A stretch of 64,000 nt of DNA from Phycisphaeraceae bacterium (GCA_963674705.1 OY771506.1:480001-544000), one strand, 5' to 3'. Shown: positions 11,847 to 64,000, counted from the stretch's first letter. Program-made: numbers and translations. The notes: generated from the letters alone by a model not told the origin.

Positions 11847-11871
11847 CTTCTCCTCCTTAGCAGGTCCGGGC

Positions 11872-17469: not shown

Positions 17470-17556
17470 TTTCTCTTTCCTCCAATTGGTTTCGTGAATC
17501 GATCCTCCATCCGACATAAAAACCGTTCGACTCATCCCTGGCCTACAGAACGGCCA

Positions 17557-45487: not shown

Positions 45488-45506
45488 CCATCTAACAAAT
45501 CACCCT

Positions 45507-45545
45507 AAAAAAGAAGCCCACGTTCGACGAACGTGGGCTTTTCAT
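45507..45545. terminator. Bidirectional terminator
   Basis: AAGCCCACGTTC-GAC-GAACGTGGGCTT perfect stem with A-run before and T-run after, between convergent genes. Confidence 0.85.
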
Positions 45546-45568
45546 TTAACACACAAACTGTACCTGCA

Positions 45569-46507: not shown

Positions 46508-46564
46508 AGCAATGAGCTCCTATTGCGGTTTTTTTGATGTATCTGCCTTATTCTACCTTCACGA

Positions 46565-47890: not shown

Positions 47891-47917
47891 GTTCCGTTCC
47901 TTTCCTCACAAGTGCGT

Positions 47918-49492
47918 TTAATCGAGGCCTGTATTTTCATTCGGCGGCATCTCGCAAACAACACGGAAGCCGACCCATCTTGCATTTACATACCACCACT
48001 GGCTCTTGGGTTCGTTCGGATAATCGCGGTTCCATTCGTCCTGGTCTTCCACGATCCGCCCGACGATTAGCTCATTCAGCGGCGATTCGAAATGACCGCC
48101 GCGTACGACACGCTCATCGCCGGTGCCCGTGACCCACTCAGCCACGTTGCCGGCTAAATCATAGATGCCCAGGCTGTTCGGTTCACGTTTGCCGATCTGC
48201 GTCGTCGCCCAATCGCCGATATCGTCGTCCCAGGCGTTATCTGTATAGGTCGCAACCCGATCGGCCTGCTCGGTGGAAGCCGGAGGGGAAAGCTCGCCGC
48301 CCCCTGCCGTGACGACCCGCTCCCACTCCGCTTCGGTCGGCAGACGATACGTCCTGCCGGTCTGCTTACTTAGCCACTTGCAGTACAACTCCGCGGATAG
48401 CCGGGACATGCCCAGTGCAGGTCGGCGGTACATCCCGAAGTTGCGGTCGACCGTGCCATAAGGCGAACTCGGCCGCAGCTTCAACGCACGCTCTTCCCCG
48501 ACCTCGGCCTCATCCTCAAGGTCATTGCCCTGCACCCAGGGCATAAACTCGTCCCAGGTCACTTCGTGCTTACCGATATAGAACGCCTGACTGTTGCTGT
48601 CGGGTTCGGCAGGCACCAGCGCCATATCGAACTGGACCTGTGTGGTTGGGATCGTTTCCGTAAATGATTCAGGCCAATCGGTTGTATCGATCGTAGTATC
48701 GGTTGATGTAGTTTCGTTGCCATTGGTTGCAGATGTATTCTCAACAACCGTATCGCTTGATTCCGCAGCATCCAAGGGTACTTCGATCCGCAACCTGACC
48801 GCGACGTTGTCTGCGATGTCTTCATTGGTCAGCAGGAGACCCAATATGCCTTCTTCTTTCAGCTCAACATCAAATGCGTGACGGTCCAGGCTGAATTCGC
48901 TGCTAACGATGAGTAAGTTTTCGGTGTGTTCAATGGTGACCGGAAACTCGATGTGCTTGGTAATGCCGTTGAGTGTGAATTCACCGGAGACAACCGTGGT
49001 ATCCTTTGCAGCTTCATCCGTAGCATCATCGGCAGGCTTATCAATGAACCCGCCTTGGAAAGTTGCCCACGGATGCTGCTCCGGCCGAAAGAATCCCGCG
49101 GTTAACAGCGCCTCGGTAAGTTGATCGTGTTCAGACCAAAGCGAGTCGATCCGAGCTTTGGCATCGAGCCAACGCGGTCGGCTGGTCGACGCATCTATAC
49201 CAAGTGTTCCTTCGATTTCGCTATCGAATTTTCCGCTCCACCCGCCACGCACAACAAGTGTTTTCCCGGCGACGGTCTTGGCACATGAAAAACTGACCGT
49301 GGTGTTCTGCGCAGACAGATCAAGACGTCGGTCCGAATCATCTAAAAGTGTCGCAAAAGTGGGAGCTTTTGTGTCACCGATGTGCGCAGAGGTCATCACA
49401 CGGGCCTCATCGTGCGCATTGGGATATAGCACGTACGCTAAACCGGTAAGACCGATCAACATGACAAAAACAATGACAACTTTCTTCATCAT
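47918..49492 (-). CDS. Membrane-anchored YceI-like + FGE-sulfatase (SUMF1-fold) fusion
   Basis: N-terminal TM; YceI-like FF.PEQHP.ATF, GEFTLNGITK and FSLDR..F; FGE-fold HEVTWDEF, RLPTEAEWE, PN.LGIYDLAGNVAEW, RGG and GFR. Confidence 0.82.
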   Translation of the reverse strand: MMKKVVIVFVMLIGLTGLAYVLYPNAHDEARVMTSAHIGDTKAPTFATLLDDSDRRLDLSAQNTTVSFSCAKTVAGKTLVVRGGWSGKFDSEIEGTLGIDASTSRPRWLDAKARIDSLWSEHDQLTEALLTAGFFRPEQHPWATFQGGFIDKPADDATDEAAKDTTVVSGEFTLNGITKHIEFPVTIEHTENLLIVSSEFSLDRHAFDVELKEEGILGLLLTNEDIADNVAVRLRIEVPLDAAESSDTVVENTSATNGNETTSTDTTIDTTDWPESFTETIPTTQVQFDMALVPAEPDSNSQAFYIGKHEVTWDEFMPWVQGNDLEDEAEVGEERALKLRPSSPYGTVDRNFGMYRRPALGMSRLSAELYCKWLSKQTGRTYRLPTEAEWERVVTAGGGELSPPASTEQADRVATYTDNAWDDDIGDWATTQIGKREPNSLGIYDLAGNVAEWVTGTGDERVVRGGHFESPLNELIVGRIVEDQDEWNRDYPNEPKSQWWYVNARWVGFRVVCEMPPNENTGLD

Positions 49493-49568
49493 AAAACGTC
49501 GAGTGACCGATCCGAGGATGAATATTATTTCTGTTGTTGGGGGCCGAATCGAACATTACCATGTCGGC

Positions 49569-50555
49569 ATGTTCGATCGCTCCCCCGTTATCTACTTTCT
49601 GACGGCAATACTAGTGCTTGCCATGGTGAGCGTCAAAGAATCGCAAGCAGAGGCGCCAGAAATATTTAGTCCGCATTTGATCCGGGTCGAGGTCCGGCAA
49701 TCTCACATGGGGATGCCTGTTTTTCTGCGGGTTTATGCCGAAGATGAGGCGGCCGGACAACGTGCCTGCCAGGCAGCATTTAAGCGGATCGCCGAGTTAA
49801 ATATGGTGCTTTCGGATTACGAGCCGGACTCCGAATTATCTCGCTTATCCGCCGGTTCGGGAACTGGGAAGGTTCCGGTTTCGCCTGAATTATTAACGGT
49901 GCTGGTGCAGGCGAAAAGTATCGCTGAACAAACCGAAGGCCTGCTCGATCCTACTGCCGGGCCGGTGATTCGAGTTTGGCGCAAAGTCCGCACCACAAAA
50001 CAACTACCCGATCAAAACACGATCGCTGAAGCGCTTAAACACGTCGGTTATTCAAATCTGCGATTGGATGAATCCAAACGAGAAGTTGAACTGACGCTTG
50101 ATGATATGCGGCTCGATCTAGGTGCGATTGCCAAGGGACATGTTGGCGATGAAGCGATCAAGTGCTTACGCGAGTTGGGGTATCCGATCGCGATGTTCGA
50201 GGCGGGCGGCGATATGGTGTTCGGCGATCCGCCGCCGGGCGAAGAAGGCTGGCTGGTTAAGCCGGCATATGATGGGCTACCCGAGTTAAGGCTGGCCAAT
50301 ACGGCCGCGGCGATCTCCGGCAATACCGTGCAATTCGTCGAGATCGACGGCAAAAGCTACGGCCACATCATCGACCCGCGCACCGGGTACCCGATCACCA
50401 CGCGGCATGTCTGCCTGGTCGCCGCCGCCAGCGGCCTGTCGGCTGACCCATTAGCGACACTGGGTACGATTATGGATGAAACGGCATATTACAAACTACT
50501 GGAAGTACATTATCCTGACACCCGGGCGTGGATTGTTACACTAGAAGAGAATTGA
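49569..50555 (+). CDS. apbE: FAD:protein FMN transferase, secreted
   Basis: Signal peptide; LSDYEPDSELSRL, LDLGAIAKG, GGD and GHIIDPRTG motifs; start uncertain (49518 or 49569). Confidence 0.88.
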   Translation: MFDRSPVIYFLTAILVLAMVSVKESQAEAPEIFSPHLIRVEVRQSHMGMPVFLRVYAEDEAAGQRACQAAFKRIAELNMVLSDYEPDSELSRLSAGSGTGKVPVSPELLTVLVQAKSIAEQTEGLLDPTAGPVIRVWRKVRTTKQLPDQNTIAEALKHVGYSNLRLDESKREVELTLDDMRLDLGAIAKGHVGDEAIKCLRELGYPIAMFEAGGDMVFGDPPPGEEGWLVKPAYDGLPELRLANTAAAISGNTVQFVEIDGKSYGHIIDPRTGYPITTRHVCLVAAASGLSADPLATLGTIMDETAYYKLLEVHYPDTRAWIVTLEEN

Positions 50556-50577
50556 CTTACCACATGGAGCTTGCATC

Positions 50578-51528
50578 ATGATCGATCGTCGCAGTTTCAT
50601 CGCCGCCGGGCTGGCTTCCGCCGCCGGCATCACCGCCGCCGCCACCAATACCGCCCAGGGACAGGACACGAAAGAGGACAAGATGCCCAGCGAGTCATCA
50701 AACAGCGCAACGCCCTTCAAGATGAAGTACGCCCCCCACTTCGGCATGTTCAAGGAGCACGCGGGTGATGACCTGGTCGCACAATTGAAGTTTGCTAAAA
50801 GCGTCGGCTTCCACGCGTGGGAAGACAACGGCATGATGGGCCGCGACGTCGCCACACAGGAAAAGGTCGCTGCGGCCATGAGCGATCTTGGCATGGAGAT
50901 GGGTGTGTTCGTCGCACATGCTGAATGGCGTGAACCGATCTACGTCAAGGGTGGCGCTGATGCTCGCAAGAAGCTTCAGGATCAGATGCGCCAAGCGGTC
51001 GAAGTTGCCAAGCGTGTGAATGCGAAGTGGTGCACGGTCGTACCCGGGCCTTATGTGAACAACATGGAATGGGATTACCAGACAGCAAACGTCGTCGACT
51101 GCCTGCGTGCGATGGCGGAGATCTGCGAGCCTAGCGGTCTTGTCATGGTGCTTGAGCCGTTGAATCCATGGGCGAACCACCCGGGTATGTTCCTGAGCAA
51201 GGTGCCCCAAGCTTATGCGATCTGCGAAGCGGTCAACTCACCAAGCTGCAAGATTCTTGATGACCTGTATCACCAGCAAGTCACCGAGGGGAACCTGATC
51301 CCGAACATTGATATGGCATGGAAGCACATTGCGTATATCCAGCTTGGTGATAACCCCGGCCGAAAGGAACCCTGGACCGGCGAGATCAACTACCGCAACA
51401 TCTTTGCCCACCTCAACAAGAAAGGCTTCGACGGCATCATCGGCATGGAACACGGCCTAAGCCAAGGCGGTAAGGAAGGTGAGCAGAAGCTGATTGATGC
51501 GTATCGCAAGTGCGATGACTTTGCTTGA
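50578..51528 (+). CDS. Tat-exported hydroxypyruvate-isomerase-like TIM barrel protein
   Basis: DRRSFI signal; LEPLN, DLYHQQVTEGN, DNPGRKEP.TGEINY and GMEH motifs. Confidence 0.88.
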   Translation: MIDRRSFIAAGLASAAGITAAATNTAQGQDTKEDKMPSESSNSATPFKMKYAPHFGMFKEHAGDDLVAQLKFAKSVGFHAWEDNGMMGRDVATQEKVAAAMSDLGMEMGVFVAHAEWREPIYVKGGADARKKLQDQMRQAVEVAKRVNAKWCTVVPGPYVNNMEWDYQTANVVDCLRAMAEICEPSGLVMVLEPLNPWANHPGMFLSKVPQAYAICEAVNSPSCKILDDLYHQQVTEGNLIPNIDMAWKHIAYIQLGDNPGRKEPWTGEINYRNIFAHLNKKGFDGIIGMEHGLSQGGKEGEQKLIDAYRKCDDFA

Positions 51529-51541
51529 TTCACAATTGTGA

Positions 51542-52966
51542 TCAACCCACTGCTTTTATCGGGAACAACCTGCCAATCATGACTACCAGGCCGGACACGC
51601 CAACGGTAGTTAGTGCGCCAGCGACCGCCCAGTGTGTCTGTCCAGTGAAGTTGCCGTAGGCGAAGACAGGCAATCCGATGCCGATCGACATCAGGATGCC
51701 GTAGAACACTGCACGTTCGGGCAATCGTTGCCAGATCAGTGAGAACACGGTCGGCAGGAGCGTCGAGGCGCGGAGTGTGCCGTAGAAGAGGAACAGGTAC
51801 AGCACTTTCAAGCCGGGGGTATTCGCCAGCCCGATCCCGGCAAGCGCCAGTAACACCATACTGATGCGTGCATATCGAACGATCCTGCGGTCGTCGGCGA
51901 TATGGCTTTGCGACAGATCATGTCCGGCCAGGCTTGATATCGCACAGAGATTTGAGTCGAGTGTTGAGACCAGGCCCGACAGCAACATAAAGACGAAGGG
52001 GAACATTACCCATGCCGGGAGGTAGTGGCGGACAGCCAGAACGTTCACCTGTTCGTTGGCTTGTGTTTCCAGACCGCTACCACGTGCGACAAAACCCAGT
52101 ACCGATAGAGATAACGGGACTATCGCAAAGATTAACGCGCCAAGGATGAAAGCCGGGGCAACCCGTTTTTCCTTGATGCCGAACGCACGCTGCCAGAAGG
52201 ATTGATCCCCGAACGGCCCAGCCAGCAGACCAATCGTGACGGGGATGCCGAAGCTGTAAGAGATCCATGCTCCTTTACCTGTAAACAGACTATTGATATC
52301 ACCTTGCGGTCCATTTAATCCATCAAGTAATGATTGAGTGCCCGATTTCATTAATACCCAAGGCACAACGACCGCGCTGACTGCAAGGATCACGATCATC
52401 TGAACAAAGTCCGTCACGACCGAGGCGCGTAGGCCGTTTAATAACGAATAGAGCAGTGCGATACCGGCAAGCGAGAACGTAACCGACCAGAACGGCACGC
52501 CGCACAACAGCGATATCACTTTGCCGCCCGCGAGTAACTGCACCGCGAACGAACAGATCGCCAGGCCGCCGAGTTGGAAGCCATAAAGTATCTGTACGCG
52601 CTTGGAGTATCGGCTGCGCATGTAGTGCGATAGCGTGAAACCTTCGGGCAACAGCCGCCTCATACGCGCGGCGAAGAATGCAAAGATGATCAGACATGCA
52701 ACGTTCGGCACGGTAAACCAGAACAAGCCCACCCAGCCCTGGCTGTATGCACGCTCGCTTGCGATAAACAAGGCCGGCGCCCAGATCCACGTAGCTGCTA
52801 TTGAAAAAGCAGCGCCCCAAACGCCCAGCTTACGGCCCGCAACTAGGAATTGCTCCTTAGACAGAACATCATGTCGGCCCGACCACCATGCGAGTAATAG
52901 CATCAGCCCGCCATACGTCGCGACGATGCCCCAGCCTTGCAGGGTTGTCATTACCGGCTCATTCAC
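51542..52966 (-). CDS. Sodium:solute symporter (SSS) family transporter
   Basis: About 13 TM helices; FLVAGR, SIAATWIWAPAL, GLRASVVTD.VQ, DQSFWQRAF and STLDS motifs. Confidence 0.88.
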   Translation of the reverse strand: MNEPVMTTLQGWGIVATYGGLMLLLAWWSGRHDVLSKEQFLVAGRKLGVWGAAFSIAATWIWAPALFIASERAYSQGWVGLFWFTVPNVACLIIFAFFAARMRRLLPEGFTLSHYMRSRYSKRVQILYGFQLGGLAICSFAVQLLAGGKVISLLCGVPFWSVTFSLAGIALLYSLLNGLRASVVTDFVQMIVILAVSAVVVPWVLMKSGTQSLLDGLNGPQGDINSLFTGKGAWISYSFGIPVTIGLLAGPFGDQSFWQRAFGIKEKRVAPAFILGALIFAIVPLSLSVLGFVARGSGLETQANEQVNVLAVRHYLPAWVMFPFVFMLLSGLVSTLDSNLCAISSLAGHDLSQSHIADDRRIVRYARISMVLLALAGIGLANTPGLKVLYLFLFYGTLRASTLLPTVFSLIWQRLPERAVFYGILMSIGIGLPVFAYGNFTGQTHWAVAGALTTVGVSGLVVMIGRLFPIKAVG

Positions 52967-52975
52967 TTACGCACC

Positions 52976-54718
52976 TCATATCGCCTCCCCCTCCTCGACC
53001 ATCCGCCGCCATATCTCGAACGTGATTAACATCCATAAACGCAGGCCGTATCGACCCCTACCCTCTTCGGTTTCGTAGCTTAGTAATTGCTTGACACGTT
53101 CGGCATCGAAGATGCCACGATCTTTGATCCGTGTGGGGTGCAATATTTTGCGTGCGTAGCGTTTCATTTCGCCTTGGAACCAGAAGTGTACGGGGACGCG
53201 CATCCCGCTCTTAGGCCGATCGATCACACTCTTTGGTAGTTGATCACGATAAGCACGTTTGAGTACGACTTTCTCGATGCCGCGGTCCAGTTTCAAACGC
53301 GTCGGCATACGGAAGCTTAACGTGATCAAACGGTCATCAAACAGCGGAGACAACGGCGTGATCCCCCACGCCCCGAGCATGCGTTCGACCTTCGGCAGGA
53401 TCAGGTGTGCGCCCTTTAGCCTGATATTCGCTGCGGTCATTTTGTTCACGAACAGCAAAGGTTTCCGGCAATCAAAGAAGGGAGTCATCACACATTCAAG
53501 CGCTTCCGTGCGATCGAATTGAGAGCGAAACTCGGGCGAGAGCATCAGGTCGACTTCTTTGTATGCTCGCCTGTATGAAGCAAGGTAAGCACGTTCGCGG
53601 AATAGCGGATCGCGTTCGATCCCGCCGTACCAATGTTGAAGCAGCATAGGCAAGTTTTTTGGCCCGCCGAAGAGAGGATCGCCACCCTCGCCGTTGAATA
53701 CCCATCGTGACTCCTGTGATACACGCCGGCTCAATTCGAAGTTCGGCATCGTGATCGGGTCGCCGATCGGCTCATCGAGATGCCAGACCATCTGCCTAAG
53801 TCTTGGCAGGAAGTCGCGAGGCTCCATCAGCACCTCTTCATGATCTGTCCCGACTTGCTCAGCAACAGCGCGGGCAAATTCTAATTCGCTTGGATACTTC
53901 TTACCGAAGTGGATCGCGAAACTGCGGATCGGCTTATCCGTGAGGCGTTTGAGTTCGGCCGCGACCACACTCGAATCGATCCCACCGGAGAGGTAAACCG
54001 CAAATGGTTCGTTCACGGGCATGCGATCAGATACTGCTTGTGCGAATGTCTCGTGAAACCGTTTTATCCATGCTTCATCTTCGCTTGGCGGTGGTTGTTC
54101 TTCCGGTTCAGCCGATTCGAAGTGAAAGTAACGATTGAGCCCGACCCGGCCGTCTTCATGTATGGTCAGATAAAACCCGGCGGGTAACTCTTCGATATCG
54201 GCAAGCATTGTTGCTGCACCGGGCACGAAGCTGAAGGTGAGATACTGCGCTACCGCGCTTGGCCTGACCTTGCGCGGGAAGCCGGGCAACAACCAGATGC
54301 CTTTCGGTTCGCAGGCGAACAGGAAGCGCCCGGCATGTTTTGCGTAATAAACCGTCCGTGCTCCCGCGCCGTCACGGACAAGATGAAGCGTTCGACCATC
54401 CTGAATCGCAAGGACGAACGCACCGGATAAGTCTTCAACGAAGCCGATACCCTTTTGTTTGTAAAGGCGTATCAGGTCATGGGCAGGATTGTTTAAAAAC
54501 ACCTGTCCTGCAACACTGATCGTCAAGTCACCATCTTGATGAACGCCACAGACGCAACGCTGGCGATTCGACTCATCAAACAAGTCCATATAGCCAACGT
54601 GCGTATGGTGATGTTGCTGGTTGTAGACAGGATCTAGGCCACGGTGTTGCATGACCGAGGCCATCGCAGACAAGAGGCGGTCATCCGGTGAACCAACGTA
54701 ACCGAAAACGATGCTCAT
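52976..54718 (-). CDS. Asparagine-synthase-like ATP-dependent amide ligase lacking the N-terminal catalytic Cys
   Basis: GAFVLAI, VRDGAG.RTVYY, LSGGIDSS PP-loop, GEGGDPLFGG and RPKSG motifs; N-terminus is MSIVFG rather than MCGI. Confidence 0.88.
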   Translation of the reverse strand: MSIVFGYVGSPDDRLLSAMASVMQHRGLDPVYNQQHHHTHVGYMDLFDESNRQRCVCGVHQDGDLTISVAGQVFLNNPAHDLIRLYKQKGIGFVEDLSGAFVLAIQDGRTLHLVRDGAGARTVYYAKHAGRFLFACEPKGIWLLPGFPRKVRPSAVAQYLTFSFVPGAATMLADIEELPAGFYLTIHEDGRVGLNRYFHFESAEPEEQPPPSEDEAWIKRFHETFAQAVSDRMPVNEPFAVYLSGGIDSSVVAAELKRLTDKPIRSFAIHFGKKYPSELEFARAVAEQVGTDHEEVLMEPRDFLPRLRQMVWHLDEPIGDPITMPNFELSRRVSQESRWVFNGEGGDPLFGGPKNLPMLLQHWYGGIERDPLFRERAYLASYRRAYKEVDLMLSPEFRSQFDRTEALECVMTPFFDCRKPLLFVNKMTAANIRLKGAHLILPKVERMLGAWGITPLSPLFDDRLITLSFRMPTRLKLDRGIEKVVLKRAYRDQLPKSVIDRPKSGMRVPVHFWFQGEMKRYARKILHPTRIKDRGIFDAERVKQLLSYETEEGRGRYGLRLWMLITFEIWRRMVEEGEAI

Positions 54719-55191
54719 TCGCCCCCGTCCGATGTCGATTCAAGATAATGGAGCATGGCCTTTGCCTCAGGTGCAAGTGAGCCATCAGGGTGTTCCGCCA
54801 ATGATCGGAATCGCGCGACAGCCTCATCCGACTTGCCTTCCCACAGATCGATCATGGCAAGTTTGTACTCGCTCTTGTGGGCCTCGAGAGAGCCGGGATA
54901 TGTTTGGATAACGGATTCGAAAGCGGATCGTGCCGAGACAAGATCATCCATGCCAAGGTAAGCCTTGGCGATGAAAAACTGCGCCCGGCTGGCATCCGCA
55001 TGATTGGGATGCTGCTGCTGGAAGGTCTGCAGTTTCGGGATCGCCTCGGCGTATTTGCCTTGCGTAACTAACAGCCTGGCAGCATCGAACTCACGCGAAG
55101 CCTGACCGCCCCGCGGCTTTGCGCAGGCAGGAATGCTGACCATCATGAGTATCAGCAACAGTATGGATAGATAGTGTTTGTGATCAGCCAT
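54715..55191 (-). CDS. TPR (CpoB/BamD-like) putative lipoprotein
   Basis: Hydrophobic signal ending IPAC; TPR-like repeats (YAEAI..L..F..QHP, AQFFIAKAY, AFESVIQTYPGS); overlaps both neighbours. Confidence 0.78.
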   Translation of the reverse strand: MADHKHYLSILLLILMMVSIPACAKPRGGQASREFDAARLLVTQGKYAEAIPKLQTFQQQHPNHADASRAQFFIAKAYLGMDDLVSARSAFESVIQTYPGSLEAHKSEYKLAMIDLWEGKSDEAVARFRSLAEHPDGSLAPEAKAMLHYLESTSDGGE

Positions 55192-56161
55192 ATCCAAAGA
55201 ATCCTGATGAATCTTCTGCCATTGCACGGCGTTCCAACACTTCCTGGATCGCGACCTGTTCCATAATCGCTGGTGTGATCAATCCCGCCAGCGCTGCGGT
55301 TGGGATCATGCTGACCCTGTTGGCATACGACGGTTCTTTACGGTGTACCAATTTGAGCACACCGATATTCTGAGTATCTGATTCGTGCAATCCAAGATCC
55401 ATGATACGATCCATCGGCACGGTAATTGGCAGTTCATCTTGCATCGCACGACCGGATGGTGTCGCATCATGTAACAGGTAAACCGGTAAGTCATCACGTT
55501 CCAGCACCAACTGCTGTGCACGTTCGGTGATATACCACGGGTAGCCGGAGGCCGAGAGTACCAGGGCTTTCATCTCGGCGTGCATGTTGTTCAGGACAAA
55601 CTCATCGACCATCAGATCGTGCTGAACAATCAGGATACATTCCACGCCATAGTCGTAGATGTCGGGCTCCTCGTAATCGGGTGGTGGATCGTTCAGTCTC
55701 GGTTCGGTGATGAGTTTGTCCAGCGGACCGCGCTCGTCGATCCACTTTTTCAAGGCGTAATCCACAACCCTGCGCTTGGGCAAGTTGTATCGCAGGTGCC
55801 CAACGCCGATTAATCCCACCACCAGACTTATAAAGCAACCAAATACAAAACCCCCGATTGGTATTTGGCCGGTTAGAAATGTGATCCATACAAGATATAG
55901 AAGCCCGAGAGTAGCGATAATAATGGCAGCGATGCCGATGACAGGTCGCCTTTTACTTGCCCACAATCGGCAGCATGTGGTAAAGAACTGATCGGCGGTG
56001 AAGTAAGCAGTGTCGCCCCGGCTGGCGCGACGGACACAGGCGAGAAACTTCCCATCGGTCCAGCCGTCATGCGTATCGGGACGAAACAGGAACATGTAGC
56101 CACAGGAGCACAAGTTCCCTGCTTTCTTCTTATGATTCGTACCGCATGACGGACAACGCAT
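55184..56161 (-). CDS. Zn-ribbon + 2 TM + degenerate TOPRIM-like domain protein
   Basis: CPSC...CSCG; two hydrophobic helices; ILIVQHD, VLSASGYP, PVYLLHDATPSG and DLGL resemble the Topo VI-A/Spo11 TOPRIM pattern. Confidence 0.7.
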   Translation of the reverse strand: MRCPSCGTNHKKKAGNLCSCGYMFLFRPDTHDGWTDGKFLACVRRASRGDTAYFTADQFFTTCCRLWASKRRPVIGIAAIIIATLGLLYLVWITFLTGQIPIGGFVFGCFISLVVGLIGVGHLRYNLPKRRVVDYALKKWIDERGPLDKLITEPRLNDPPPDYEEPDIYDYGVECILIVQHDLMVDEFVLNNMHAEMKALVLSASGYPWYITERAQQLVLERDDLPVYLLHDATPSGRAMQDELPITVPMDRIMDLGLHESDTQNIGVLKLVHRKEPSYANRVSMIPTAALAGLITPAIMEQVAIQEVLERRAMAEDSSGFFGYG

Positions 56162-56235
56162 CGTTCACCCCCTTCCCGGATGATGCGGACAGTATACCGG
56201 ACATCAACAGGACGGGAGCCACAGCGAGGTCACGA

Positions 56236-59200
56236 TTATCTGGAAAGCATACGGATCTGCTCAAGGATGCCGGGGTCCTTGATCTGCTTATCTCTTGCTA
56301 ACAATAGCGTCTTGCTGATCACCTCGGCGGTCTTGGGATCGTCATCGGCAAAAGGCAGGAACAGCCGCCCGCGGTGCTGGCCGTGGACGGGCACGATGAA
56401 TAGCGAGCCACCCGGCATAACGTGCGTCACCGCGCTTCCCAGATGCAGAGAGTAGCTGGCATGGTCTCCTTTAATCAGTGCGTGATTGTTCTCGATCCGT
56501 ACGTTCTGCATATCAAGCACAGCTAGCGTCTCGCTCAACAGGTTGCTGCGCATTTCGACCGTCGATGCACTAGCCTCGGGATCCACGCCGCCGCGATGTG
56601 CGACCGAAACGACCAGATCGAGATCACGCATCACCTCGCTGAAAACAAGCGGCGGGATCTGTTCAAGCTCGATCGGCTGCCATTCACCGATGCGGGTGAA
56701 ACGGACATCATCAACTGTCAACCCGTCTATTTCCGCGGGGGTGTAGAAGCCTTCCTCGAATCCAAGCCAAACAGAAAGCTTCAGGTCGTGGAACGTCTTG
56801 CGAACACCTTCTTCGGGTAGCGTTATCCAGCCTCGCTTACCAAGCAGCGCCAATGCCTGACTTGGATTGACCTGCTGGCCGGTATAACGCCTGGATAGTG
56901 TTTTATCGTTGCGCTCGGTATCGGTCAGGATATACAGCTCGCGGAACAGTTGCTTGAACGGCTGAACACGTTCAGCGGAAAAACATTCGTGCTGCCACTT
57001 GGACCAATCACCACGCTGAAGCAGGTCATACGGATGGGCGATGTGAATCGCTTCTGTTTTTTTCACCGGCTCCTGTGAACCGCTATGATCGATCAGCAGT
57101 TTGCCCGCCTTTTGTGGGTAGCCCGCAATCCCTTCGCCGATGAATACCAATCGCTCGAGCATGGGCTTGATCAAAGGGTGTTGCATCAGATCGCCCAGTT
57201 CTTCGCCGGTGAAGCGTTCGCCGCGGCACATCATCTGCTCGAGCGACAAACGCATCCGCGAGACCTGACGCTTAAGAGATGTCTTTCGATCACACAGCGC
57301 TTTGATCTTACGGTCTTTCTTTGCAGCAGCGGGGATCGACTTTTGCGATTTGCCGGCTTTTTCTACAGCAATCTCTGGTTCACCCGCGTCGGTGATAAAC
57401 AAGCTGATCGTAGCCTGCCCCACCGATACAGAAACAGGTCCTTCGGCCAAGTCGCTGACGGCCGAGGCTTCCATCGCCCATTGCAGCCGCAACGGATCAG
57501 GATAGCCGGCCGTCCTTGCAAGATTGGCCTGGCCAATCTCGACAGATCGTTTTTCGCTCGCCTGCCGCATGCTGCCAAACTGTTTACTCGTGCGCAGGAA
57601 TTCCTGCATCAACTCGTATCGTTTGAACAGGTCACTCTTGCGCGCTTTACCTCGCGCAAGTGGAAGCAGGCCGATGGCACGCACCGCGTCCTTGTGGCGT
57701 TTGTCTTTGATGCGTTTGGTCAGTTCGGTCTTGGTAACGTTGCCGAGCATTGCGTCAGCGAAAAGCTGAGCGCGCTTGTGCCCGCCGGCCGAAGACGCGT
57801 TTTTAGCCGCGTCATAAACCTGATCCCATCGTTTCTTTTTCAGCGTGTTATAAGTTTGCTTGAACCACTCCACATCAACAGCACCATCAACCAGGTCCTG
57901 CCCATCCAAGGCGGTACGCTCAGAGATTTCACGGATCCAGGCTTCACGAACCTCCTGCTCGACAGACCACTGATCGTCCTTGGTATGTGCGTGCAGCCAC
58001 CACACCGCTTCCTCAAAGCCGGGCCAGCCTATTGCCAGTTCAATGATGCGGGCCCACTGCGGTGCGAACATCGCTGTTTCGATCCAACGCGACTCTGGGA
58101 TATCTGCTTGCTGAGCGAGTTCTTTGAATTGTTCAGCGGTATCTTCTTCAAGCGGACAGCAACAACGGATCAGATGGCTGAAGCTGGTTTTCTTGTCGTT
58201 GCCTTCATCACCGTAAAAGCTGCTAGAACGCAGGAAGGCTGTTTTGCCGAGGGCTTTGAGTAGCTTCACAAGGTAGTCTATGCCGGGGACACTGCTGATA
58301 TGTCCGGCGGGTTGGGTTGCGGCCGTCGGCTCGTCACCACGAACCAGTTCTACTTCGAGCACACGGTCGCGTACGCGCTCGACCAGTGGTTTGAGCCTTG
58401 GCGATGTTTTAAATATTGCGTGAGGTTTTCGTATTGTCAGTTCTCGCAGGATAGACACGTGCACATGTTTGTGTACATTGCCCGGCTCATCGAACTTCCA
58501 CGCGTCAAGCAGCAGTTCATATACGTCGTGCTCGTTCATAATATCCAAACGTAAGCCGTGCGCCAGCATTGTGGTGTCGACCGTGCTGCGAACCGAATAA
58601 TATGGCGTATGCCACCAGTACCGGTCAGGCTCTTTTATCTTCGCTTGCGCTTCGTCGTATTCAGCCTGTTCTTGTAACTTTTGGGGATCGATAAACGATT
58701 GTCCATCAGTATCGATCGGCCGATCCAGCCAGAGATAAAGACGGATAAGGCGGGCAAGTTGTGTATCGTTCCAGTCATCAGGATGTTGCATGTACTCGTT
58801 CTTCAGGGCATTGAGCCAGTAGAGACGCAATGATTTGTATGAACGCAGCAATGGGATAGGCCGTTCTTGACCGATCGTCGCCAAAGCGGTTTCCGCGATA
58901 TCCAGTTTGAGACCCAACGAATCAGGATGGGTGTGACGTGCTGCAAGCCATCCGATCACATCGGACATCACCGAGTAATACCGGGGCCTTTTCTTTGGAA
59001 GCAACTCTGCATTAAAGCCGGGATTCTGTTTAAACGTGTCATCGTCGGAAGTCAGTGCGCCACACATCACCGCGGCCCGCCACGAGTCCAGGCCATCTTC
59101 ATCACGCAGGTCTGCGGATCGGTTGGCGTACCAATCCTCCCATACCTCCGCGAGCGGAAAATCATCGATGGGCGTATTACTTACATATGCTTTTCGTGGC

Positions 59201-61239
59201 CACAATCTGTTGTCATGCCCTAACAAGTCTTCCTTCTGCACGCCCGACCAATCTTCAACGGCTACCCGTGTCTCACGGTGCTTGTGAATCAGGTCGTCGA
59301 TCGCGTGGTAATAAACTGACGCGGCCTTCGTCATCAATGGGACTTTATGATCCTTTAGCGGCTGCGGCTTATATAGTTGGCTGGCATCCATCAGGCCCAA
59401 CGCATCTTGCAATGTGGGCTTCGTACGCTCCACACCCAGCACCTTATCAAGCAGGCTTTGCTCGCTATCGGTGAGTTGATCGCCGTGCTCTGCGACGTAT
59501 GTCTCGGCACGTTCATAACACTCATCCGGCAGGCGCTTGAGCGGTTGCAATGAACTCATCAACTCGACACCCGCCAACCGCTGCTGCTTATTGCGCGACG
59601 CCAGCAAGCGATCGATGCTGGCCAAGACGCCGGGGTCATCCTGCTTCCGCAAGAGCTTAAGCAAACCCCGGCGCAGGTCTCCCGCTTTACGCGTCAACAA
59701 AGATTCCAGTTGCTCGAAGTCCTCGGTGACTTCATCAACTCTTTCAAGCTGCCCAAGGACTTGCATTCGTACAGAACTGCTTGCGTCACCAATGAGATCA
59801 AGCAACAACGCATGCGTACCGTCCCAAGCCAACTGTTCCTTGGTAAGCCGTCTGATGAAGTTCTCTCGCCCCGCCGGGCTCATCGACGGCACGATCTTCA
59901 AGAATCTCGGCCAGTCATGTTGTTCGGCAAATCGCCAAATAACATCGGTGACCATACCGCGACTGATCGTCAATTCCATCCAAGGCCAAAGGATCGGCTT
60001 GAGTTTGGTCGCTTTGACCGGCAGCCGTCCACTCGCCGCCTCAAGCTTGGAAAAGAGATTGACTCCCTTTGGTTTGGTATTCAGCCAGGTTTGGCATGCT
60101 GAAAAGGCAGCAAATATCAGCCTCGGGTCTTCATCATCCAGCACCGGGATCAGTGCATTGTGCGCCTCTTCCGTTGAGAGCATGATCAGCATCCACGCGG
60201 CAGCGAAGCGCACCTCTGGCTTGCGGTGTTTTAATAGCTTGTTCGCAGCCGGTAAAGCCTGATACGCATCACTGAAGCCGAGAGACCATAAGGCAAAATA
60301 AATATCTTCCGCGTCGTCTGACTTCAATGCCGCTTCGATCGATTCGGGTTTCTGTAAATAACCCAAAACCTTTTCGATGATAGATTTGATATATCCACCC
60401 GAAGCCGAATCCCAATTCAGTGCAAACCAGACATCCGCTGCACGCACGACCGATGCGAAGCGCGTCAGGTTCTGATCAAGAATAAGTTTGAGCATCCGTT
60501 TGAATGCTTCGGGGTGTGCCTGTTTGATCGGCTCCAGGATCGCCTGACGCAATCCCTCCTGACGTTGCGCAGCAAGCAGCAGTTTCTCGAGGTATTCCCA
60601 AGCATCAGGCCTGCCGCACCCCATTAAGGCGACTGTGACATGTTTGCCCATCTGCCCGATATCGTGGTCGCCGTTGGCAGAATCCACAAGTGTTTGAAAA
60701 ACGCGCTGCCCCTGGTCCCCCCCACCATCAATTGCAGCGGCAAGTAATTGACCGATACTTTCCGGCATGTAACAGGGAAGGTAAGGCGTCCACGCAGCAA
60801 GCCACTGTGCATCCTGATCAAATCCATCAAGCATGAGGCAGATCGATTGCAGCCACTTGGCTCGTACATGCAATGAATGTTCTGGATGCGACGGTGCACG
60901 GAACGGCATGGCAAGATACGCAGGCGTGTATGGCTGCTGTTTCAACTGCTGCCAACAACGTTCCATATGCGGCGCGAGTTTGGGGAAGATGTCGGCAAAA
61001 ATAGACAGCCGTTCCTCGGTCGACAACGCATCAAGCCGGTTTGCCTTTTCATCCATGTCCGGCTTGTGTGTGTGTGCCGAAAAAGGCACTAGCGACTTAC
61101 GCGTCTTTAAACCTGCAAGCCTATACATAATCTCGCGCTGAGCCTCGGGCTTCTTGGCCAGACGTGCTTCCACACGCTGCTCCCACTTCGGGTCCCGCAG
61201 CATGTTCAGCTTTTCTTGAGCCTGTTCATTACTCAGCAT
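56236..61239 (-). CDS. Large helical-repeat DUF4132-type protein (DUF5724/DUF4132 architecture)
   Basis: 1667 aa; AAQRQEGLRQAILE; HEAT-like repeats; IAHPYDL, VQPFKQLFRELY, FSEVMRDLDLVVSVAH and LPFADDDPKTAEVISK motifs. Confidence 0.82.
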   Translation of the reverse strand: MLSNEQAQEKLNMLRDPKWEQRVEARLAKKPEAQREIMYRLAGLKTRKSLVPFSAHTHKPDMDEKANRLDALSTEERLSIFADIFPKLAPHMERCWQQLKQQPYTPAYLAMPFRAPSHPEHSLHVRAKWLQSICLMLDGFDQDAQWLAAWTPYLPCYMPESIGQLLAAAIDGGGDQGQRVFQTLVDSANGDHDIGQMGKHVTVALMGCGRPDAWEYLEKLLLAAQRQEGLRQAILEPIKQAHPEAFKRMLKLILDQNLTRFASVVRAADVWFALNWDSASGGYIKSIIEKVLGYLQKPESIEAALKSDDAEDIYFALWSLGFSDAYQALPAANKLLKHRKPEVRFAAAWMLIMLSTEEAHNALIPVLDDEDPRLIFAAFSACQTWLNTKPKGVNLFSKLEAASGRLPVKATKLKPILWPWMELTISRGMVTDVIWRFAEQHDWPRFLKIVPSMSPAGRENFIRRLTKEQLAWDGTHALLLDLIGDASSSVRMQVLGQLERVDEVTEDFEQLESLLTRKAGDLRRGLLKLLRKQDDPGVLASIDRLLASRNKQQRLAGVELMSSLQPLKRLPDECYERAETYVAEHGDQLTDSEQSLLDKVLGVERTKPTLQDALGLMDASQLYKPQPLKDHKVPLMTKAASVYYHAIDDLIHKHRETRVAVEDWSGVQKEDLLGHDNRLWPRKAYVSNTPIDDFPLAEVWEDWYANRSADLRDEDGLDSWRAAVMCGALTSDDDTFKQNPGFNAELLPKKRPRYYSVMSDVIGWLAARHTHPDSLGLKLDIAETALATIGQERPIPLLRSYKSLRLYWLNALKNEYMQHPDDWNDTQLARLIRLYLWLDRPIDTDGQSFIDPQKLQEQAEYDEAQAKIKEPDRYWWHTPYYSVRSTVDTTMLAHGLRLDIMNEHDVYELLLDAWKFDEPGNVHKHVHVSILRELTIRKPHAIFKTSPRLKPLVERVRDRVLEVELVRGDEPTAATQPAGHISSVPGIDYLVKLLKALGKTAFLRSSSFYGDEGNDKKTSFSHLIRCCCPLEEDTAEQFKELAQQADIPESRWIETAMFAPQWARIIELAIGWPGFEEAVWWLHAHTKDDQWSVEQEVREAWIREISERTALDGQDLVDGAVDVEWFKQTYNTLKKKRWDQVYDAAKNASSAGGHKRAQLFADAMLGNVTKTELTKRIKDKRHKDAVRAIGLLPLARGKARKSDLFKRYELMQEFLRTSKQFGSMRQASEKRSVEIGQANLARTAGYPDPLRLQWAMEASAVSDLAEGPVSVSVGQATISLFITDAGEPEIAVEKAGKSQKSIPAAAKKDRKIKALCDRKTSLKRQVSRMRLSLEQMMCRGERFTGEELGDLMQHPLIKPMLERLVFIGEGIAGYPQKAGKLLIDHSGSQEPVKKTEAIHIAHPYDLLQRGDWSKWQHECFSAERVQPFKQLFRELYILTDTERNDKTLSRRYTGQQVNPSQALALLGKRGWITLPEEGVRKTFHDLKLSVWLGFEEGFYTPAEIDGLTVDDVRFTRIGEWQPIELEQIPPLVFSEVMRDLDLVVSVAHRGGVDPEASASTVEMRSNLLSETLAVLDMQNVRIENNHALIKGDHASYSLHLGSAVTHVMPGGSLFIVPVHGQHRGRLFLPFADDDPKTAEVISKTLLLARDKQIKDPGILEQIRMLSR

Positions 61240-61245
61240 GATGTA

Positions 61246-61680
61246 TTAACCACCGGCCAGCATGACCAGTCTGAGAAAGGTAACCCGGCTATCGGGCTTC
61301 ATATGAACCTCCGCGTCGAGGTCCCGGTATTCCTGATCGTCTACAATCACCAAATACAATCCGTCTTCAAACGATACCAGCGCGTTGTCGATTGCTTCAT
61401 CGACTTCGACCTGTTGATCGAGATCGCGACCGCCCGAATCAACCTTGCCTCGCGCTGCCTGCTCCCGGATCGCCCGCTCGGTCAGCACCCGAATAAAGCG
61501 GTTCTCCTCCTGGCGATTACGAAAAGCCTCCACCGTCTCAACCACGACCCGCGTGATCAGGTCGCGCAATGTGAACGGTTCGCCACGCGACAGAACGGGC
61601 GGTATCGGGATAGACCAGTCGTCCAGCAGTCGCTTTCGCCTGCCGATCGCCCGCGCGGAAATAGTAATGGTCCCGACCAT
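61246..61680 (-). CDS. Small protein with ubiquitin/MoaD-like C-terminus ending in di-glycine
   Basis: C-terminus YLVIVDDQEYRDLDAEVHMKPDSRVTFLRLVMLAGG*; stop codon 6 bp upstream of the DUF4132 gene. Confidence 0.72.
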   Translation of the reverse strand: MVGTITISARAIGRRKRLLDDWSIPIPPVLSRGEPFTLRDLITRVVVETVEAFRNRQEENRFIRVLTERAIREQAARGKVDSGGRDLDQQVEVDEAIDNALVSFEDGLYLVIVDDQEYRDLDAEVHMKPDSRVTFLRLVMLAGG

Positions 61681-61828
61681 GAAAACAGATTATACCGCCC
61701 CATCGGACACCGACACCGACCAGCGTCTTTCTAATACAACAAGGCCTTTACATGCGGCCCCACAGTCACCCCGGCAGAGCGTTTGCCCGACTTTTCTCAA
61801 GGCTTTATGATATTAACACTAACTCCCA

Positions 61829-61900
61829 GCGGGCGTAACTCAATGGTAGAGTGTCAGCCTTCCAAGCTGAATGTTGAGGGTTCGAGTCCCTTCGCCCGCT
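61829..61900 (+). tRNA. tRNA-Gly (anticodon TCC), CCA not encoded
   Basis: Acceptor stem GCGGGCG/CGCCCGC, D-arm ACTC..GAGT, anticodon arm TCAGC-CTTCCAA-GCTGA, T-arm GAGGG-TTCGAGT-CCCTT. Confidence 0.97.
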
Positions 61901-62061
61901 TTCCTGAATCTGTATGACGAACAACGCCTTGTGCTGCCAACCGGCGACACGAGGCGTCTTTGTTTCGCCCACGTCGCAAGTTACGATCAAGCCGTACAAT
62001 CCAGGCCAACGCCACCCGGTCGCCCACACGTGCCAACGTGTGCCACCGTCGGCCTACCGTC

Positions 62062-62113
62062 CGTGCAAGGATTCGTACAAGCGCCCGAAACCACGTGCAA
62101 GGTTTCGTGCAAG
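62062..62113 (+). repeat. Putative integrase arm-type sites
   Basis: CGTGCAAGGATTCGTACAAG (62062-62081) and CGTGCAAGGTTTCGTGCAAG (62094-62113): four CGTRCAAG units. Confidence 0.6.
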
Positions 62114-62123
62114 GACTGCTTGG

Positions 62124-63332
62124 TCAGATCAACTGCGAGAGGAACGTCTGGGCGGGCACTACGGTCGGTCCCTGCGGCTTGGCGAAGCAATCCGCATCGA
62201 CGTAATCCAAGTCGATGACCACCTGGAACGCAAAGGGCGCTTTGACCTGTTCCTGGTACGTTCGCAGGGCTGGGCTTAACGAAGTTTCGCTGTGTTTGAC
62301 CTCGACCAGGAACCACGGCTTGCCGTCACGAATCACGGCGAAATCGACCTCCCGTTTTTCCTTGTCACGCAGGTACGCCAACTGGAACTTGCCAAGCCCC
62401 AAGTCATTCCAGCCATCAACCGCCTTGAGCAGGTGGCAGCCGACAAATGTCTCGGCTCGACTGCCCTCTTCTTCGATTTCCGCCCAGTCACGCAAGAACC
62501 ACTTCGGTTCCTTGCGAAGCGAACGGGTGACGTTCTTGAACCACGGCTTGATCAGGAATCCGTGATGAAGGCTGCTGAGCGTTTCGACCCAACGTCGAAC
62601 CGTGTCCACTGATACCTGCACATCCTTGGCCAGATTGCTGAACGTGATCTGCGAGCCAGATCGGCTAGCAAGCATCCGAGCCAGCACGCTGATCTGGTCA
62701 ATCTGCTGAACCTGTGTCAGGTCACGAAGGTCTTCGCGCAGCAGTTGTTGGATGCGAAGCGTCTGCCATCGGCGACTGAAACGTGGATCGCGTTTGAGAT
62801 ACGGCTCTGGATATCCGCCATGCTGCCAGAGGGAGTCTAAGTCGGTTGCCTTGGGCTTCTTCGGCAAGCGGACAATCCGCTTGGGATCAGGAAGATCACG
62901 GTGGACGATCTCAGCCACCGAGAATGGGTGCATGTGGTAGAGGAAGTATCGACCCATCAAGCTGTCGCCGACGCGGCGGTATATGTCGAGTCGGCTTGAG
63001 CCGGTGACCAGCACGTGTACCCGGTCGGCATAGCTGTCATAAAAGCCCTTGAGGAACTGCTTCCATCGCATGTACTTGTGCAGTTCATCGAACAGTGCGA
63101 CCGGCAGCTTGTCCCGAAGACGGTCAAGGCCCAACTGCTTAGCCACGGCAGCAGGCCCGGCGAGTATGGCGGCCTGATCGTCCGTATTGTCCCAGTTGGC
63201 GTAGCTGTCGGCATGGTTACGGCAGGTGGTGGTCTTGCCGACCTGCCGAGGTCCACTCACCAAAGCCATCTGCCGGTGCTGCGTCAAGTGCTCCGCGAGG
63301 AAGCGGTCGTAGATGCGTGCGACGGGTTTCAT
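62124..63332 (-). CDS. ATP-binding protein, AAA_14 + DUF4143
   Basis: GPRQVGKTT Walker A, LFDE Walker B, VTGSS, GGYPE, wHTH-like segment and C-terminal REVDF...VEVK nuclease-like motif. Confidence 0.9.
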   Translation of the reverse strand: MKPVARIYDRFLAEHLTQHRQMALVSGPRQVGKTTTCRNHADSYANWDNTDDQAAILAGPAAVAKQLGLDRLRDKLPVALFDELHKYMRWKQFLKGFYDSYADRVHVLVTGSSRLDIYRRVGDSLMGRYFLYHMHPFSVAEIVHRDLPDPKRIVRLPKKPKATDLDSLWQHGGYPEPYLKRDPRFSRRWQTLRIQQLLREDLRDLTQVQQIDQISVLARMLASRSGSQITFSNLAKDVQVSVDTVRRWVETLSSLHHGFLIKPWFKNVTRSLRKEPKWFLRDWAEIEEEGSRAETFVGCHLLKAVDGWNDLGLGKFQLAYLRDKEKREVDFAVIRDGKPWFLVEVKHSETSLSPALRTYQEQVKAPFAFQVVIDLDYVDADCFAKPQGPTVVPAQTFLSQLI

Positions 63333-63335
63333 GCT

Positions 63336-63397
63336 GACCATTTTCGATAGTATCGTAAAATAGTCAAGACCAATTTACGATGGCCACGAAAATAGTC
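63336..63397. promoter_or_regulatory. Two tandem 30-bp imperfect palindromes (putative operators)
   Basis: GACCATTTTCGATAGTATCGTAAAATAGTC (63336-63365) and GACCAATTTACGATGGCCACGAAAATAGTC (63368-63397), directly upstream of the AAA gene. Confidence 0.65.
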
Positions 63398-63413
63398 GGA
63401 CCAAGATGAGGCC

Positions 63414-64000
63414 TCAGCCCGCCACGGAATGGGCCTTATCGGTCCCATTACCTGCAGGTGTACCAAAGGCAGGCAACGCCTCAACTGCCCCGGCCACATC
63501 GAGCAGTGCCGGGTCGGTATACACATTCATCGTGAGTTCGAGACTGCTGTGCCGCATCGCGGCCATGGCGACGCGCGGGGCGACACCTGCCCGGGCGAGA
63601 TGGGTGCCGAACGTGTGGCGAAGGGCGTGCAGATCAACCACCCGGTCGCGTTCGTCTCGCTTGGGGATGCTCGCGGCAGCAAGGTCGCGATCGAACACAC
63701 GGATCTTGTCCTTGGGCATTGGGAACAGATGTGTCTCGTGCCGAAGTGTCCTACCGGCGCGTGCGTGGAGGTTGTTTATGTATGTCCGTAACACTTCGAC
63801 CAGGTCCGCTCGTAACGGGATCATCGCACCGCGACCTGCCTTCTCGTCTTTGGCAAGTAGTTCCAGATACGGGTACTCCCCATCGAGATGGGTCTGGCCC
63901 ACAGTGATACTGGCCAGTTCGTTCTTGCGCAAGCCGGTGCAGATCATCATGCGATACATCAGCGCCCGTTGCCGACCGACGAACATCAAGGTGTCGATGC
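63414..64000 (-). CDS. Tyrosine recombinase/integrase, C-terminal catalytic part (5' truncated by the window)
   Basis: TGLR.NE, EKAGR, HALRH, MRHS and NVY catalytic residues; frame open to the window edge. Confidence 0.92.
   Translation of the reverse strand, partial: IDTLMFVGRQRALMYRMMICTGLRKNELASITVGQTHLDGEYPYLELLAKDEKAGRGAMIPLRADLVEVLRTYINNLHARAGRTLRHETHLFPMPKDKIRVFDRDLAAASIPKRDERDRVVDLHALRHTFGTHLARAGVAPRVAMAAMRHSSLELTMNVYTDPALLDVAGAVEALPAFGTPAGNGTDKAHSVAG

Follow-up and report, generated by a model that had tools for sequence, protein, structure and literature searches.

Do the six adjacent, co-oriented genes at positions 51542 to 61680 of a 64,000 nucleotide stretch of Phycisphaeraceae bacterium DNA (GCA_963674705.1 OY771506.1:480001-544000; the whole stretch is called the window below) form one biochemical system, or do unrelated systems merely adjoin there? 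Read along the minus strand they encode a ubiquitin-like protein (Ubl), a 1667 amino acid DUF4132 protein, a Zn-ribbon membrane protein with a TOPRIM domain, a TPR lipoprotein, an AsnB-like ligase and an SSS family transporter, and a check of the open reading frames (ORFs) agrees with the reported strand and gaps of 6, 74, -8, -4 and 9 bp. The original prediction, made from the sequence, joined all six into an E1-independent tagging system in which AsnB activates Ubl, and offered as an alternative that two modules are parted at the 74 bp gap (56162..56235, minus strand). The alternative is borne out by neighbourhood counts: the six genes are two independent modules lying side by side, module A (Ubl and DUF4132) and module B (TOPRIM, TPR, AsnB and SSS). 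For module B we favour, with a probability of about 0.4, the reading that AsnB ligates a small amine, imported in this bacterium and cupin-made in most others, to the C-terminal [FY]G dipeptide of the TOPRIM protein, as comparison of the sequences suggests.

The separation is seen from both sides. Among 80 metagenome loci retrieved with a Ubl alignment, the DUF4132 gene directly follows Ubl in 60; 18 of the other 20 are on contigs that stop 406 bp or less from Ubl, which leaves two true exceptions. The TOPRIM, TPR, AsnB and SSS genes are found in none of these 80 loci, although 22 of the 24 full-length DUF4132 genes there are followed by 1 kb or more of sequence. Conversely, none of 42 genome loci retrieved with a TOPRIM alignment contains Ubl, and DUF4132 is present in one of them as a stub; at least 6 kb of upstream DNA is available in 31. 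In one sample of 301 genomes of the phylum, Ubl occurs in 20, strong TOPRIM and strong AsnB-subfamily matches fall in the same three, and only the source genome (G000, a planctomycete genome of 5.54 Mb, 96.6% complete) carries both modules. A sister genome (G353/G004, locus L008) that is 96% identical to the window and colinear with it over positions 45190-56463 retains module B; its DUF4132 gene is reduced to about 80 codons and Ubl has no match. We note that the site of module A is occupied in this sister (L008:3581-9740) by genes that truncate DUF4132 to the stub; they encode a small Zn-binding protein, a C5 cytosine methylase, a Ser/Thr kinase and a DDE transposase.

Some features do speak for a single system in which AsnB stands in for E1 and conjugates a GG-ended Ubl: the genes are co-oriented with short gaps, their order is kept on one contig in a second strain about 95% identical, and, as originally noted, the operon has no E1/ThiF, E2 or JAB gene, the genome containing one unlinked ThiF and no Prok-JAB. 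The second strain, with all six genes, weighs against our division of the locus; the arrangement is therefore stable within a narrow lineage, where co-transcription of the six genes is possible. The six-gene scheme is nevertheless contradicted by the cross-occurrence of 0/80 and 0/42, on which we rejected it, by the restriction of both modules to one genome among 301, by the sister genome with module B and no module A, and by the GA end of 50 of 120 Ubls, and it now seems highly improbable.

The module B ligase (52976..54718, minus strand) is a predicted AsnB-fold adenylating enzyme whose domain calls are Asn_synthase and a decayed GATase domain. The reported lack of a glutaminase Cys is a property of the family, since Cys2 is found in 0/25 sequences (residue 2 is S, G, A, P or D), and the Ntn domain of the window protein is degenerate. 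In the synthetase domain, which aligns with 1ct9, S244-S249 (SGGxDS), E344 and D347 (GEGGD) and the catalytic Lys, K503, are invariant. The family has invariant motifs of its own, GGPKN, KGAHLILPK and RPKSGMRVP, and it has an invariant Pro directly after GEGxD, where E. coli AsnB has the Glu that binds the amino group of aspartate. The protein is below the cut-offs of TIGR01536 (224 vs 267 bits), NF006949 (126 vs 499 bits) and the lasso cyclase family NF033535 (129 vs 525 bits). It shares the absence of a glutaminase Cys with β-lactam synthetase (1jgt), CarA (1q15) and the lasso cyclases, and by analogy with these it may form an acyl-adenylate and accept an amine from outside the Ntn domain; because it is glutaminase-less, an external nucleophile is needed. 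It is unlike lasso cyclases and β-lactam synthetase in that no lasso B/RRE or β-lactam genes are nearby, and no lasso protease B/RRE neighbour is conserved in the 42 TOPRIM loci. AsnB lies within the locus in 32 of these 42, and of the 10 remaining genomes 8 carry it at another site (40/42 in total); in two of those 8 a TPR-AsnB pair is separate from a cupin-TOPRIM pair.

The partner of AsnB is the Zn-ribbon/TOPRIM membrane protein (55184..56161, minus strand), which has a Zn ribbon (C3/C6/C18/C20), transmembrane (TM) helices at residues 75-93 and 102-120, a degenerate topo VI-A-type TOPRIM domain and a disordered tail ending in GYG. The initial domain call was a weak topo VI-A TOPRIM, and the earlier description as a membrane protein with a degenerate TOPRIM domain is upheld by the two TM helices, by PF21180 in 143 of 150 family members and by an HHalign probability of 89 against planctomycete topo VI-A. 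The structure model (pLDDT 92.9) matches topo VI-A chains with Z 8.9-9.0 (2zbk: rmsd 3.9, 141 aligned); Foldseek searches with this model and with that of Ubl gave no match with E < 0.001. The fold and sequence profile are those of the topo VI-A/Spo11/JetD group, but the protein differs from that group in its degenerate metal-binding acids (the catalytic Glu column is E, Q or D in 70, 54 and 20 of 150 sequences, Q180 in the window, and the second Asp of DxD is kept in 14/150) and in its two TM helices, Zn ribbon and [FY]G tail, and it has no topo VI-B or JetABC partner of the kind topo VI-A and JetD have. Residues 25-71 gave no significant HHalign match to a winged helix (5Y-CAP) in comparisons with first 3 and then 25 topo VI-A sequences. 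The Zn ribbon, TOPRIM domain and tail should all lie on one side of the membrane, the cytoplasmic one. The family comprises 573 representatives (E < 1e-30) in Planctomycetota, Verrucomicrobiota, Myxococcota, Bacteroidota and a few Proteobacteria, and is patchy, being present in 2 of 61 relatives; TOPRIM was not found in plasmids, and neither it nor the AsnB subfamily was found in viral contigs. Topo VI-A itself (PF04406) was detected in 39 of the 61 genomes sampled from the class, but was not found in the source genome or in two other members of its family.

The last residues of the TOPRIM protein, 321-325, have pLDDT below 50, and a C-terminal [FY]G, preceded by a variable G/S/D-rich linker, is present in 27/27, 133/143 and 38/40 complete sequences. 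In the window this dipeptide is Y324-G325 (55187..55192, minus strand), which we propose as the AsnB acceptor on the strength of its conservation. The idea that AsnB adenylates the C-terminal Gly of a protein, part of the original prediction, thus survives with a different substrate, the likely target being the TOPRIM tail and not Ubl. Ligation to the C-terminus was chosen because no acid-supplying gene is conserved beside module B in the 42 loci, because the obligatory partner has a conserved disordered [FY]G, and because precedents exist among asparagine synthetase (AS)-like enzymes. According to the available text of two reports, FzmA, PesC, TsrC and ScdTA are AS-like enzymes that modify peptide C-termini (PMC13622209, PMC13060819). 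They would share with the window enzyme an AsnB fold, intact ATP-pyrophosphatase motifs and, if our proposal is right, an acceptor carboxylate at the conserved C-terminus of a protein encoded by a neighbouring gene. The window enzyme differs from FzmA and PesC, as far as those accounts go, in that it has no Ntn Cys and its proposed acceptor is a 325 amino acid membrane protein, not a short RiPP precursor. No precursor peptide was noticed near module B, although very short ORFs were not searched for.

Several observations weigh against this assignment. The precedents are imperfect: in the available parts of the same reports FzmA and PesC take their nitrogen from glutamine or glutamyl donors, PesC also from ammonia, and act on short peptides (PMC13622209, PMC13060819). 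One locus (L020) has AsnB and a TOPRIM protein that has lost its tail, and another (L048) has a tail-bearing TOPRIM gene in a genome where AsnB was not found. A motif for protein binding or for proteolysis would account for a C-terminal aromatic-Gly just as well.

The remaining genes of module B bear on the nucleophile. In most other genomes the slot upstream of TOPRIM, which in the window is the 74 bp gap, holds a 230 amino acid bicupin gene; it is directly upstream of TOPRIM in 34/42 loci and elsewhere in three more genomes (37/42 in total). The source genome has no cupin, and module B there ends with the SSS transporter gene (51542..52966, minus strand) in place of it. A close SSS orthologue is present in only 2/42 TOPRIM genomes (G353 and G354), both without a cupin, so that with the source genome added SSS is found in 0/37 cupin genomes vs 3/6 cupin-less ones; no genome among those tested has both. 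The swap in bacteria is open to the objections that it rests on three genomes, two of which are sisters, and that their SSS sequences fall in neighbouring clades; it may represent one event or two, and at most two because of the sister pair. In addition, at least three TOPRIM genomes (G373, G390 and G393), incomplete or decayed, have neither cupin nor SSS orthologue, another genome (G079) has TOPRIM and AsnB with no cupin match, and no further SSS-type module B locus was found in 15 and 5 other genomes from the phyla of G354 and G372, respectively. In G390 a cupin remnant directly precedes an N-terminally truncated TOPRIM gene beside an intact AsnB gene (L335:5228-5985), a decayed module B.

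The SSS transporter, whose domain call is SSF, has DUR3 as its nearest solved relative (E 1e-17) and retains W93, W95 and D312 (DUR3 numbering), but has A, F, C and L for the urea hydrogen-bonding residues T98, Y117, Q124 and N305 in 52-56 of 56 sequences, as well as Y315F and W338F in the pairwise alignment with DUR3. Since non-polar residues replace those that hydrogen-bond urea, urea is an unlikely substrate, and retention of the aromatic cage and D312 with loss of the urea hydrogen-bond donors favours an amine other than urea. In the sources available to us, DUR3 relatives are described as carrying urea, polyamines or thiamine (PMC11840088, PMC5997356). In the bicupin, His148, His150, His188, His203 and His215, Cys118 and Cys133 and several acidic residues do not vary across the 30 bacterial and 44 phage sequences compared, and the bacterial cupins mostly cluster apart from those of phages. 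Its matches in the PDB are weak, generic cupins that do not indicate a substrate, the best being BacB and 5zbe (E ~1e-3). The same bicupin was also seen on two Burkholderiaceae replicons (L222:8568-12088 and L223:8965-13228), in one setting beside class II aaRS-like and GTP cyclohydrolase II-like genes and in the other beside methyltransferase-like, desaturase-like and AzlC/D-like genes (these last three labels assigned by eye).

These cupin data touch on a different role for the enzyme, in which AsnB makes a free small-molecule amide or lactam with another metabolite, the TOPRIM protein senses, binds or exports the product, and [FY]G is only a docking site. The Cys-less AsnB-fold enzymes among the PDB matches, β-lactam synthetase and CarA, do act on small molecules, the Burkholderiaceae cupins sit in small biosynthetic clusters, and the weak likeness of the bicupin to BacB and 5zbe points the same way. 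This scheme leaves the more than 90% retention of a disordered terminal dipeptide unexplained, however, and the 42 loci show no conserved gene beside module B for an exporter, an acid-supplying enzyme or another biosynthetic function; we regard it as possible but doubtful.

The same two alternative genes recur in viruses, where matching stretches number 445 for the cupin and 145 for SSS in viral contigs; no cupin was found in annotated phages. In the best 80 of the 445 cupin stretches, SSS is present in 0/80 and IbrA in 76/80, and in the best 80 of the 145 stretches found with the window SSS (44-53% identity), cupin is present in 0/80 and IbrA again in 76/80. Most of both sets also contain IbrB and a ParB-like gene, often beside terminase, and cupin and SSS often occupy the same slot, after ParB; the cassette families are phrog_2302, phrog_2159 and phrog_20720, the last being the subfamily of the window SSS. 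The viral loci are redundant, falling to 44 cupin and 23 SSS loci after dereplication, which also lessens the weight of the comparison. The exclusion of cupin and SSS in viruses is independent of that in bacteria. The phage cassette thus resembles module B in having the same bicupin or SSS subfamily, never both, together with a PP-loop adenylating enzyme, and differs from it in that the enzyme is IbrA (PAPS-reductase-like, DUF3440) and not AsnB, the companion is ParB and not a membrane TOPRIM protein, and module B is cellular. None of the 42 TOPRIM loci has IbrA, IbrB, a ParB-like gene or terminase; only cupin or SSS is common to the two settings. A second PP-loop gene is present in 12/80 cupin and 56/80 SSS phage loci (L209:8582-9957, L215:6837-8200, L224-L303), and a stand-alone, Cys-bearing glutamine amidotransferase gene in 7/80 cupin and 0/80 SSS phage loci.

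The occurrence of two unrelated PP-loop enzymes, each with either this enzyme or this importer, is most simply explained by one co-substrate that is made or imported. Cupin and SSS very probably supply the same compound, module B and the phage cassette likely rely on one common small molecule, and that compound is probably an amine nucleophile, the extra amidotransferase of the 7/80 phage cupin cassettes being counted in favour of an amine. More tentatively, we suggest that AsnB activates the carboxylate of the TOPRIM tail. In the mechanism we propose, SSS would import a small amine here, the bicupin would make it in most other genomes, and AsnB would join it to the [FY]G C-terminus of the membrane-anchored protein; this modification might act as a switch on an envelope-tied sensor that binds nucleic acid in the cytoplasm without catalysis, a role for which the case is weak. 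The TPR lipoprotein (54715..55191, minus strand, starting at ATG 55191), with YbgF/BamD-like repeats and a lipoprotein-type Cys, is present in 16/42 TOPRIM loci and could be an optional, periplasmic partner.

The phage parallel also lends itself to two other interpretations. In the first, nucleic acid or nucleotides are modified, as is presumed for the phage cassette: the TOPRIM protein, as counterpart of ParB, presents DNA or RNA at the membrane and AsnB adds the compound to a base. Both settings do join cupin or SSS to a PP-loop adenylating enzyme and a DNA-associated fold (TOPRIM vs ParB), and the distribution is patchy and mobile-like (2/61 relatives, 3/301 phylum genomes). Yet AsnB enzymes activate carboxylates, which standard nucleobases do not have; the TOPRIM Glu column and second DxD Asp are eroded as given above; and no homology with the winged helix of topo VI-A was detected. 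A search for known anti-phage defence systems (PADLOC 2.0) returned only trivial matches (E 0.0025 and 0.018), and we consider such modification unlikely. In the second interpretation the shared compound carries sulfur, the cupin being a thiol dioxygenase or C-S lyase and the PP-loop enzymes making a thioamide, a thiocarboxylate (on the Gly tail) or a phosphorothioate. IbrA is PAPS-reductase/DndC-like, the metal site of the cupin is His-only, Arg replacing the usual Glu, and the protein has three conserved Cys, and a C-terminal Gly is the classic thiocarboxylate carrier; against this, the transporter is DUR3-like with an aromatic cage, some phage cassettes include a glutamine amidotransferase, and no desulfurase or rhodanese is conserved nearby, so a sulfur compound appears more improbable still. 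Ligation to the TOPRIM C-terminus thus ranks first, followed in order by a free metabolite, nucleic acid modification, sulfur and, last, the six-gene Ubl scheme.

No description of the module B gene combination was found in the literature searched, supplements and subscription journals lying outside the search; within that literature neither module B nor its connection with the phage cassette seems to have been reported. PMC2922099 concerns MetRS-linked cupins and has no mention of TOPRIM in its available portion, PMC12704722 has none of the Ibr terms, and the accessible parts of PMC12839542 and PMC12323421 do not treat the accessory genes of the phage cassette. Annotation usually assigns that ParB-IbrA-IbrB cassette, which is very common, to sulfur metabolism. 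Module B offers a second, chemically better defined handle on it, and the cupin/SSS swap makes the question of the phage substrate directly testable. With a compound that is probably a nucleophile and one importer or one cupin to supply it, swap, uptake and metabolomic tests are direct. Should the [FY]G tail prove to be what AsnB acts on, AsnB-type C-terminal modification would be extended from short peptides to a membrane protein.

Module A poses a different problem. The Ubl (61246..61680, minus strand; 144 amino acids) is assigned to no family by domain calls, and its AlphaFold model (pLDDT 74) is a beta-grasp with a helical insert of about 55 residues. Its top structural matches are all beta-grasp proteins, Urm1 among them, the best being MOCS2A (Z 8.2, rmsd 4.0, 82 aligned); the Z scores are middling and beta-grasp chains dominate the match list. 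The di-glycine terminus originally described holds for the window copy, which ends in LAGG, but is not strict in the family, where GG is found in 68 of the 120 Ubls and GA in the 50 mentioned above. The giant protein encoded next (56236..61239, minus strand), predicted earlier to be a 1667 amino acid scaffold, is called as DUF5724, HEAT, DUF4132 and DUF7737 domains. It is nearly always directly downstream of Ubl; in 13/13 further genomic loci Ubl adjoins a DUF4132-DUF7737 gene, long or short, and no other conserved Ubl neighbour was found in the 80 loci. In one locus (L077) a single Ubl gene is flanked by two tandem DUF4132 copies.

In 38 related pairs the DUF7737 column that corresponds to codon 1614 of the window gene (56398..56400, minus strand) is Cys in 27, and all 27 are paired with a GG Ubl, whereas the Ubls of the 11 pairs without this Cys end in GG (6), GA (4) or SG (1), a covariation with Fisher p 9e-4 (one locus is counted twice among the 38, and kin are not independent). 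The window pair has a GG Ubl and Phe at 1614. A covalent step between Ubl-GG and DUF7737-Cys is, judging from this covariation, likely in many relatives and would have been relaxed in the sub-lineage of the window, whose Phe implies that Ubl binding is likely non-covalent there. We note that a second Ubl subfamily (L339-L348) has strict LVGG tails and partners of 720-1230 amino acids with DUF4132-DUF7737, all with the DUF7737 Cys. A search of the PDB with a DUF7737 profile gave no E2, and in the ESM Atlas DUF7737 matched only DUF4132/DUF7737 clusters, with scores below 0.9 and no structure among them. The window Ubl resembles Bil, Bub and MoaD/ThiS, as these are described in the portions of the literature available, in being a beta-grasp with a C-terminal Gly-Gly. 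It differs from Bil and Bub so described in having a fixed DUF4132 partner and in the absence of E1, E2 and JAB both from the operon and from its conserved neighbours, and its family differs from all four in that GA tails are common.

The two genes of module A form a widespread unit, already on record as a pair that lacks an explanation; DUF4132 was found mentioned in 5 papers. In D. radiodurans a Ubl homologue (44% identity over 110 amino acids; assigned to DRA0165 by gene position) is directly upstream of a 1626 amino acid DUF4132 gene, and this pair has GG with the DUF7737 Cys where the window has GG with Phe. The part of the source report available to us describes drA0165-drA0166 as a DdrO-controlled operon of unassigned function and DRA0166 as induced by mitomycin C in an IrrE-dependent manner (10.1101/2021.07.07.451423). 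Unlike that operon, the window has no RDRM or SOS box found upstream of Ubl, and no such box is shared by the Ubl genes; an SOS-box-like GAAC-N4-GTTC was seen in 3/78 Ubl upstream regions (L098, L099 and L124) vs 0.1 expected. The two module A proteins likely act together in stress or DNA damage, with Ubl bound to the DUF4132 scaffold. What is new here for this long-unexplained, DNA-damage-induced pair is the covariation of GG with the DUF7737 Cys, and the Phe of the window, as read from the aligned sequences; it supplies a concrete test. A wider picture, rather unlikely as a whole, would have bacteria and phages sharing a hitherto undiscovered small amine, the product of a dedicated metal bicupin or the cargo of a dedicated DUR3-like symporter, which IbrA/IbrB add to phage DNA at packaging and AsnB adds to the [FY]G end of the bacterial TOPRIM protein, with an E1-free link of Ubl GG to Cys acting separately in the DNA-damage response. 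If the shared-amine part of it is true, module B would be a new protein C-terminal tagging system that could sense, sequester or counter a phage pathway.

A perfect TATAAT (61689..61694, minus strand) lies 8 nt before the Ubl ATG and is possibly a leaderless promoter, on the evidence of this single motif; a scan for promoters and terminators gave chance levels (8 vs 7.1 and 11 vs 10.3). A tRNA-Gly(TCC) gene (61828..61901) is present beside the six genes, as noted earlier, but it is on the plus strand, divergent from them, and the six genes are outside the island at this site. The 3' part of the tRNA gene forms attL (61857-61904), and a second copy of the 48 bp att repeat is at genome position 575087, 33 kb to the right; the island spans this interval to the right of the tRNA gene, and the six genes are therefore excluded from it. 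The island (window 61857-64000, G000:C1:541857-575134) encodes a tyrosine integrase, Prim-Pol/DUF3987, AAA_14-DUF4143, GH88, GH115, a TRAP transporter, UxuA and a Fic protein, and in two runs divergent copies of parts of its left end are present at much greater depth. A dense one-strand array of about 30 tRNA genes is found about 80 kb to the right of the window (G000:C1:622407-634804). On the other side, window positions 1-45500 are devoted to polysaccharide and uronate catabolism (chondroitinase B-like and alginate lyases, GH2, UxaC, KDPG aldolase and a sulfatase) and include an unrelated SSS gene. Large ORFs without a strong Pfam match are at 9042-11936, 14734-16182, 16291-17535 and 23194-24603, and positions 47918-49492 (minus strand) encode a fusion of YceI with a formylglycine-generating-enzyme-like domain, in divergent orientation to an ApbE-like gene.

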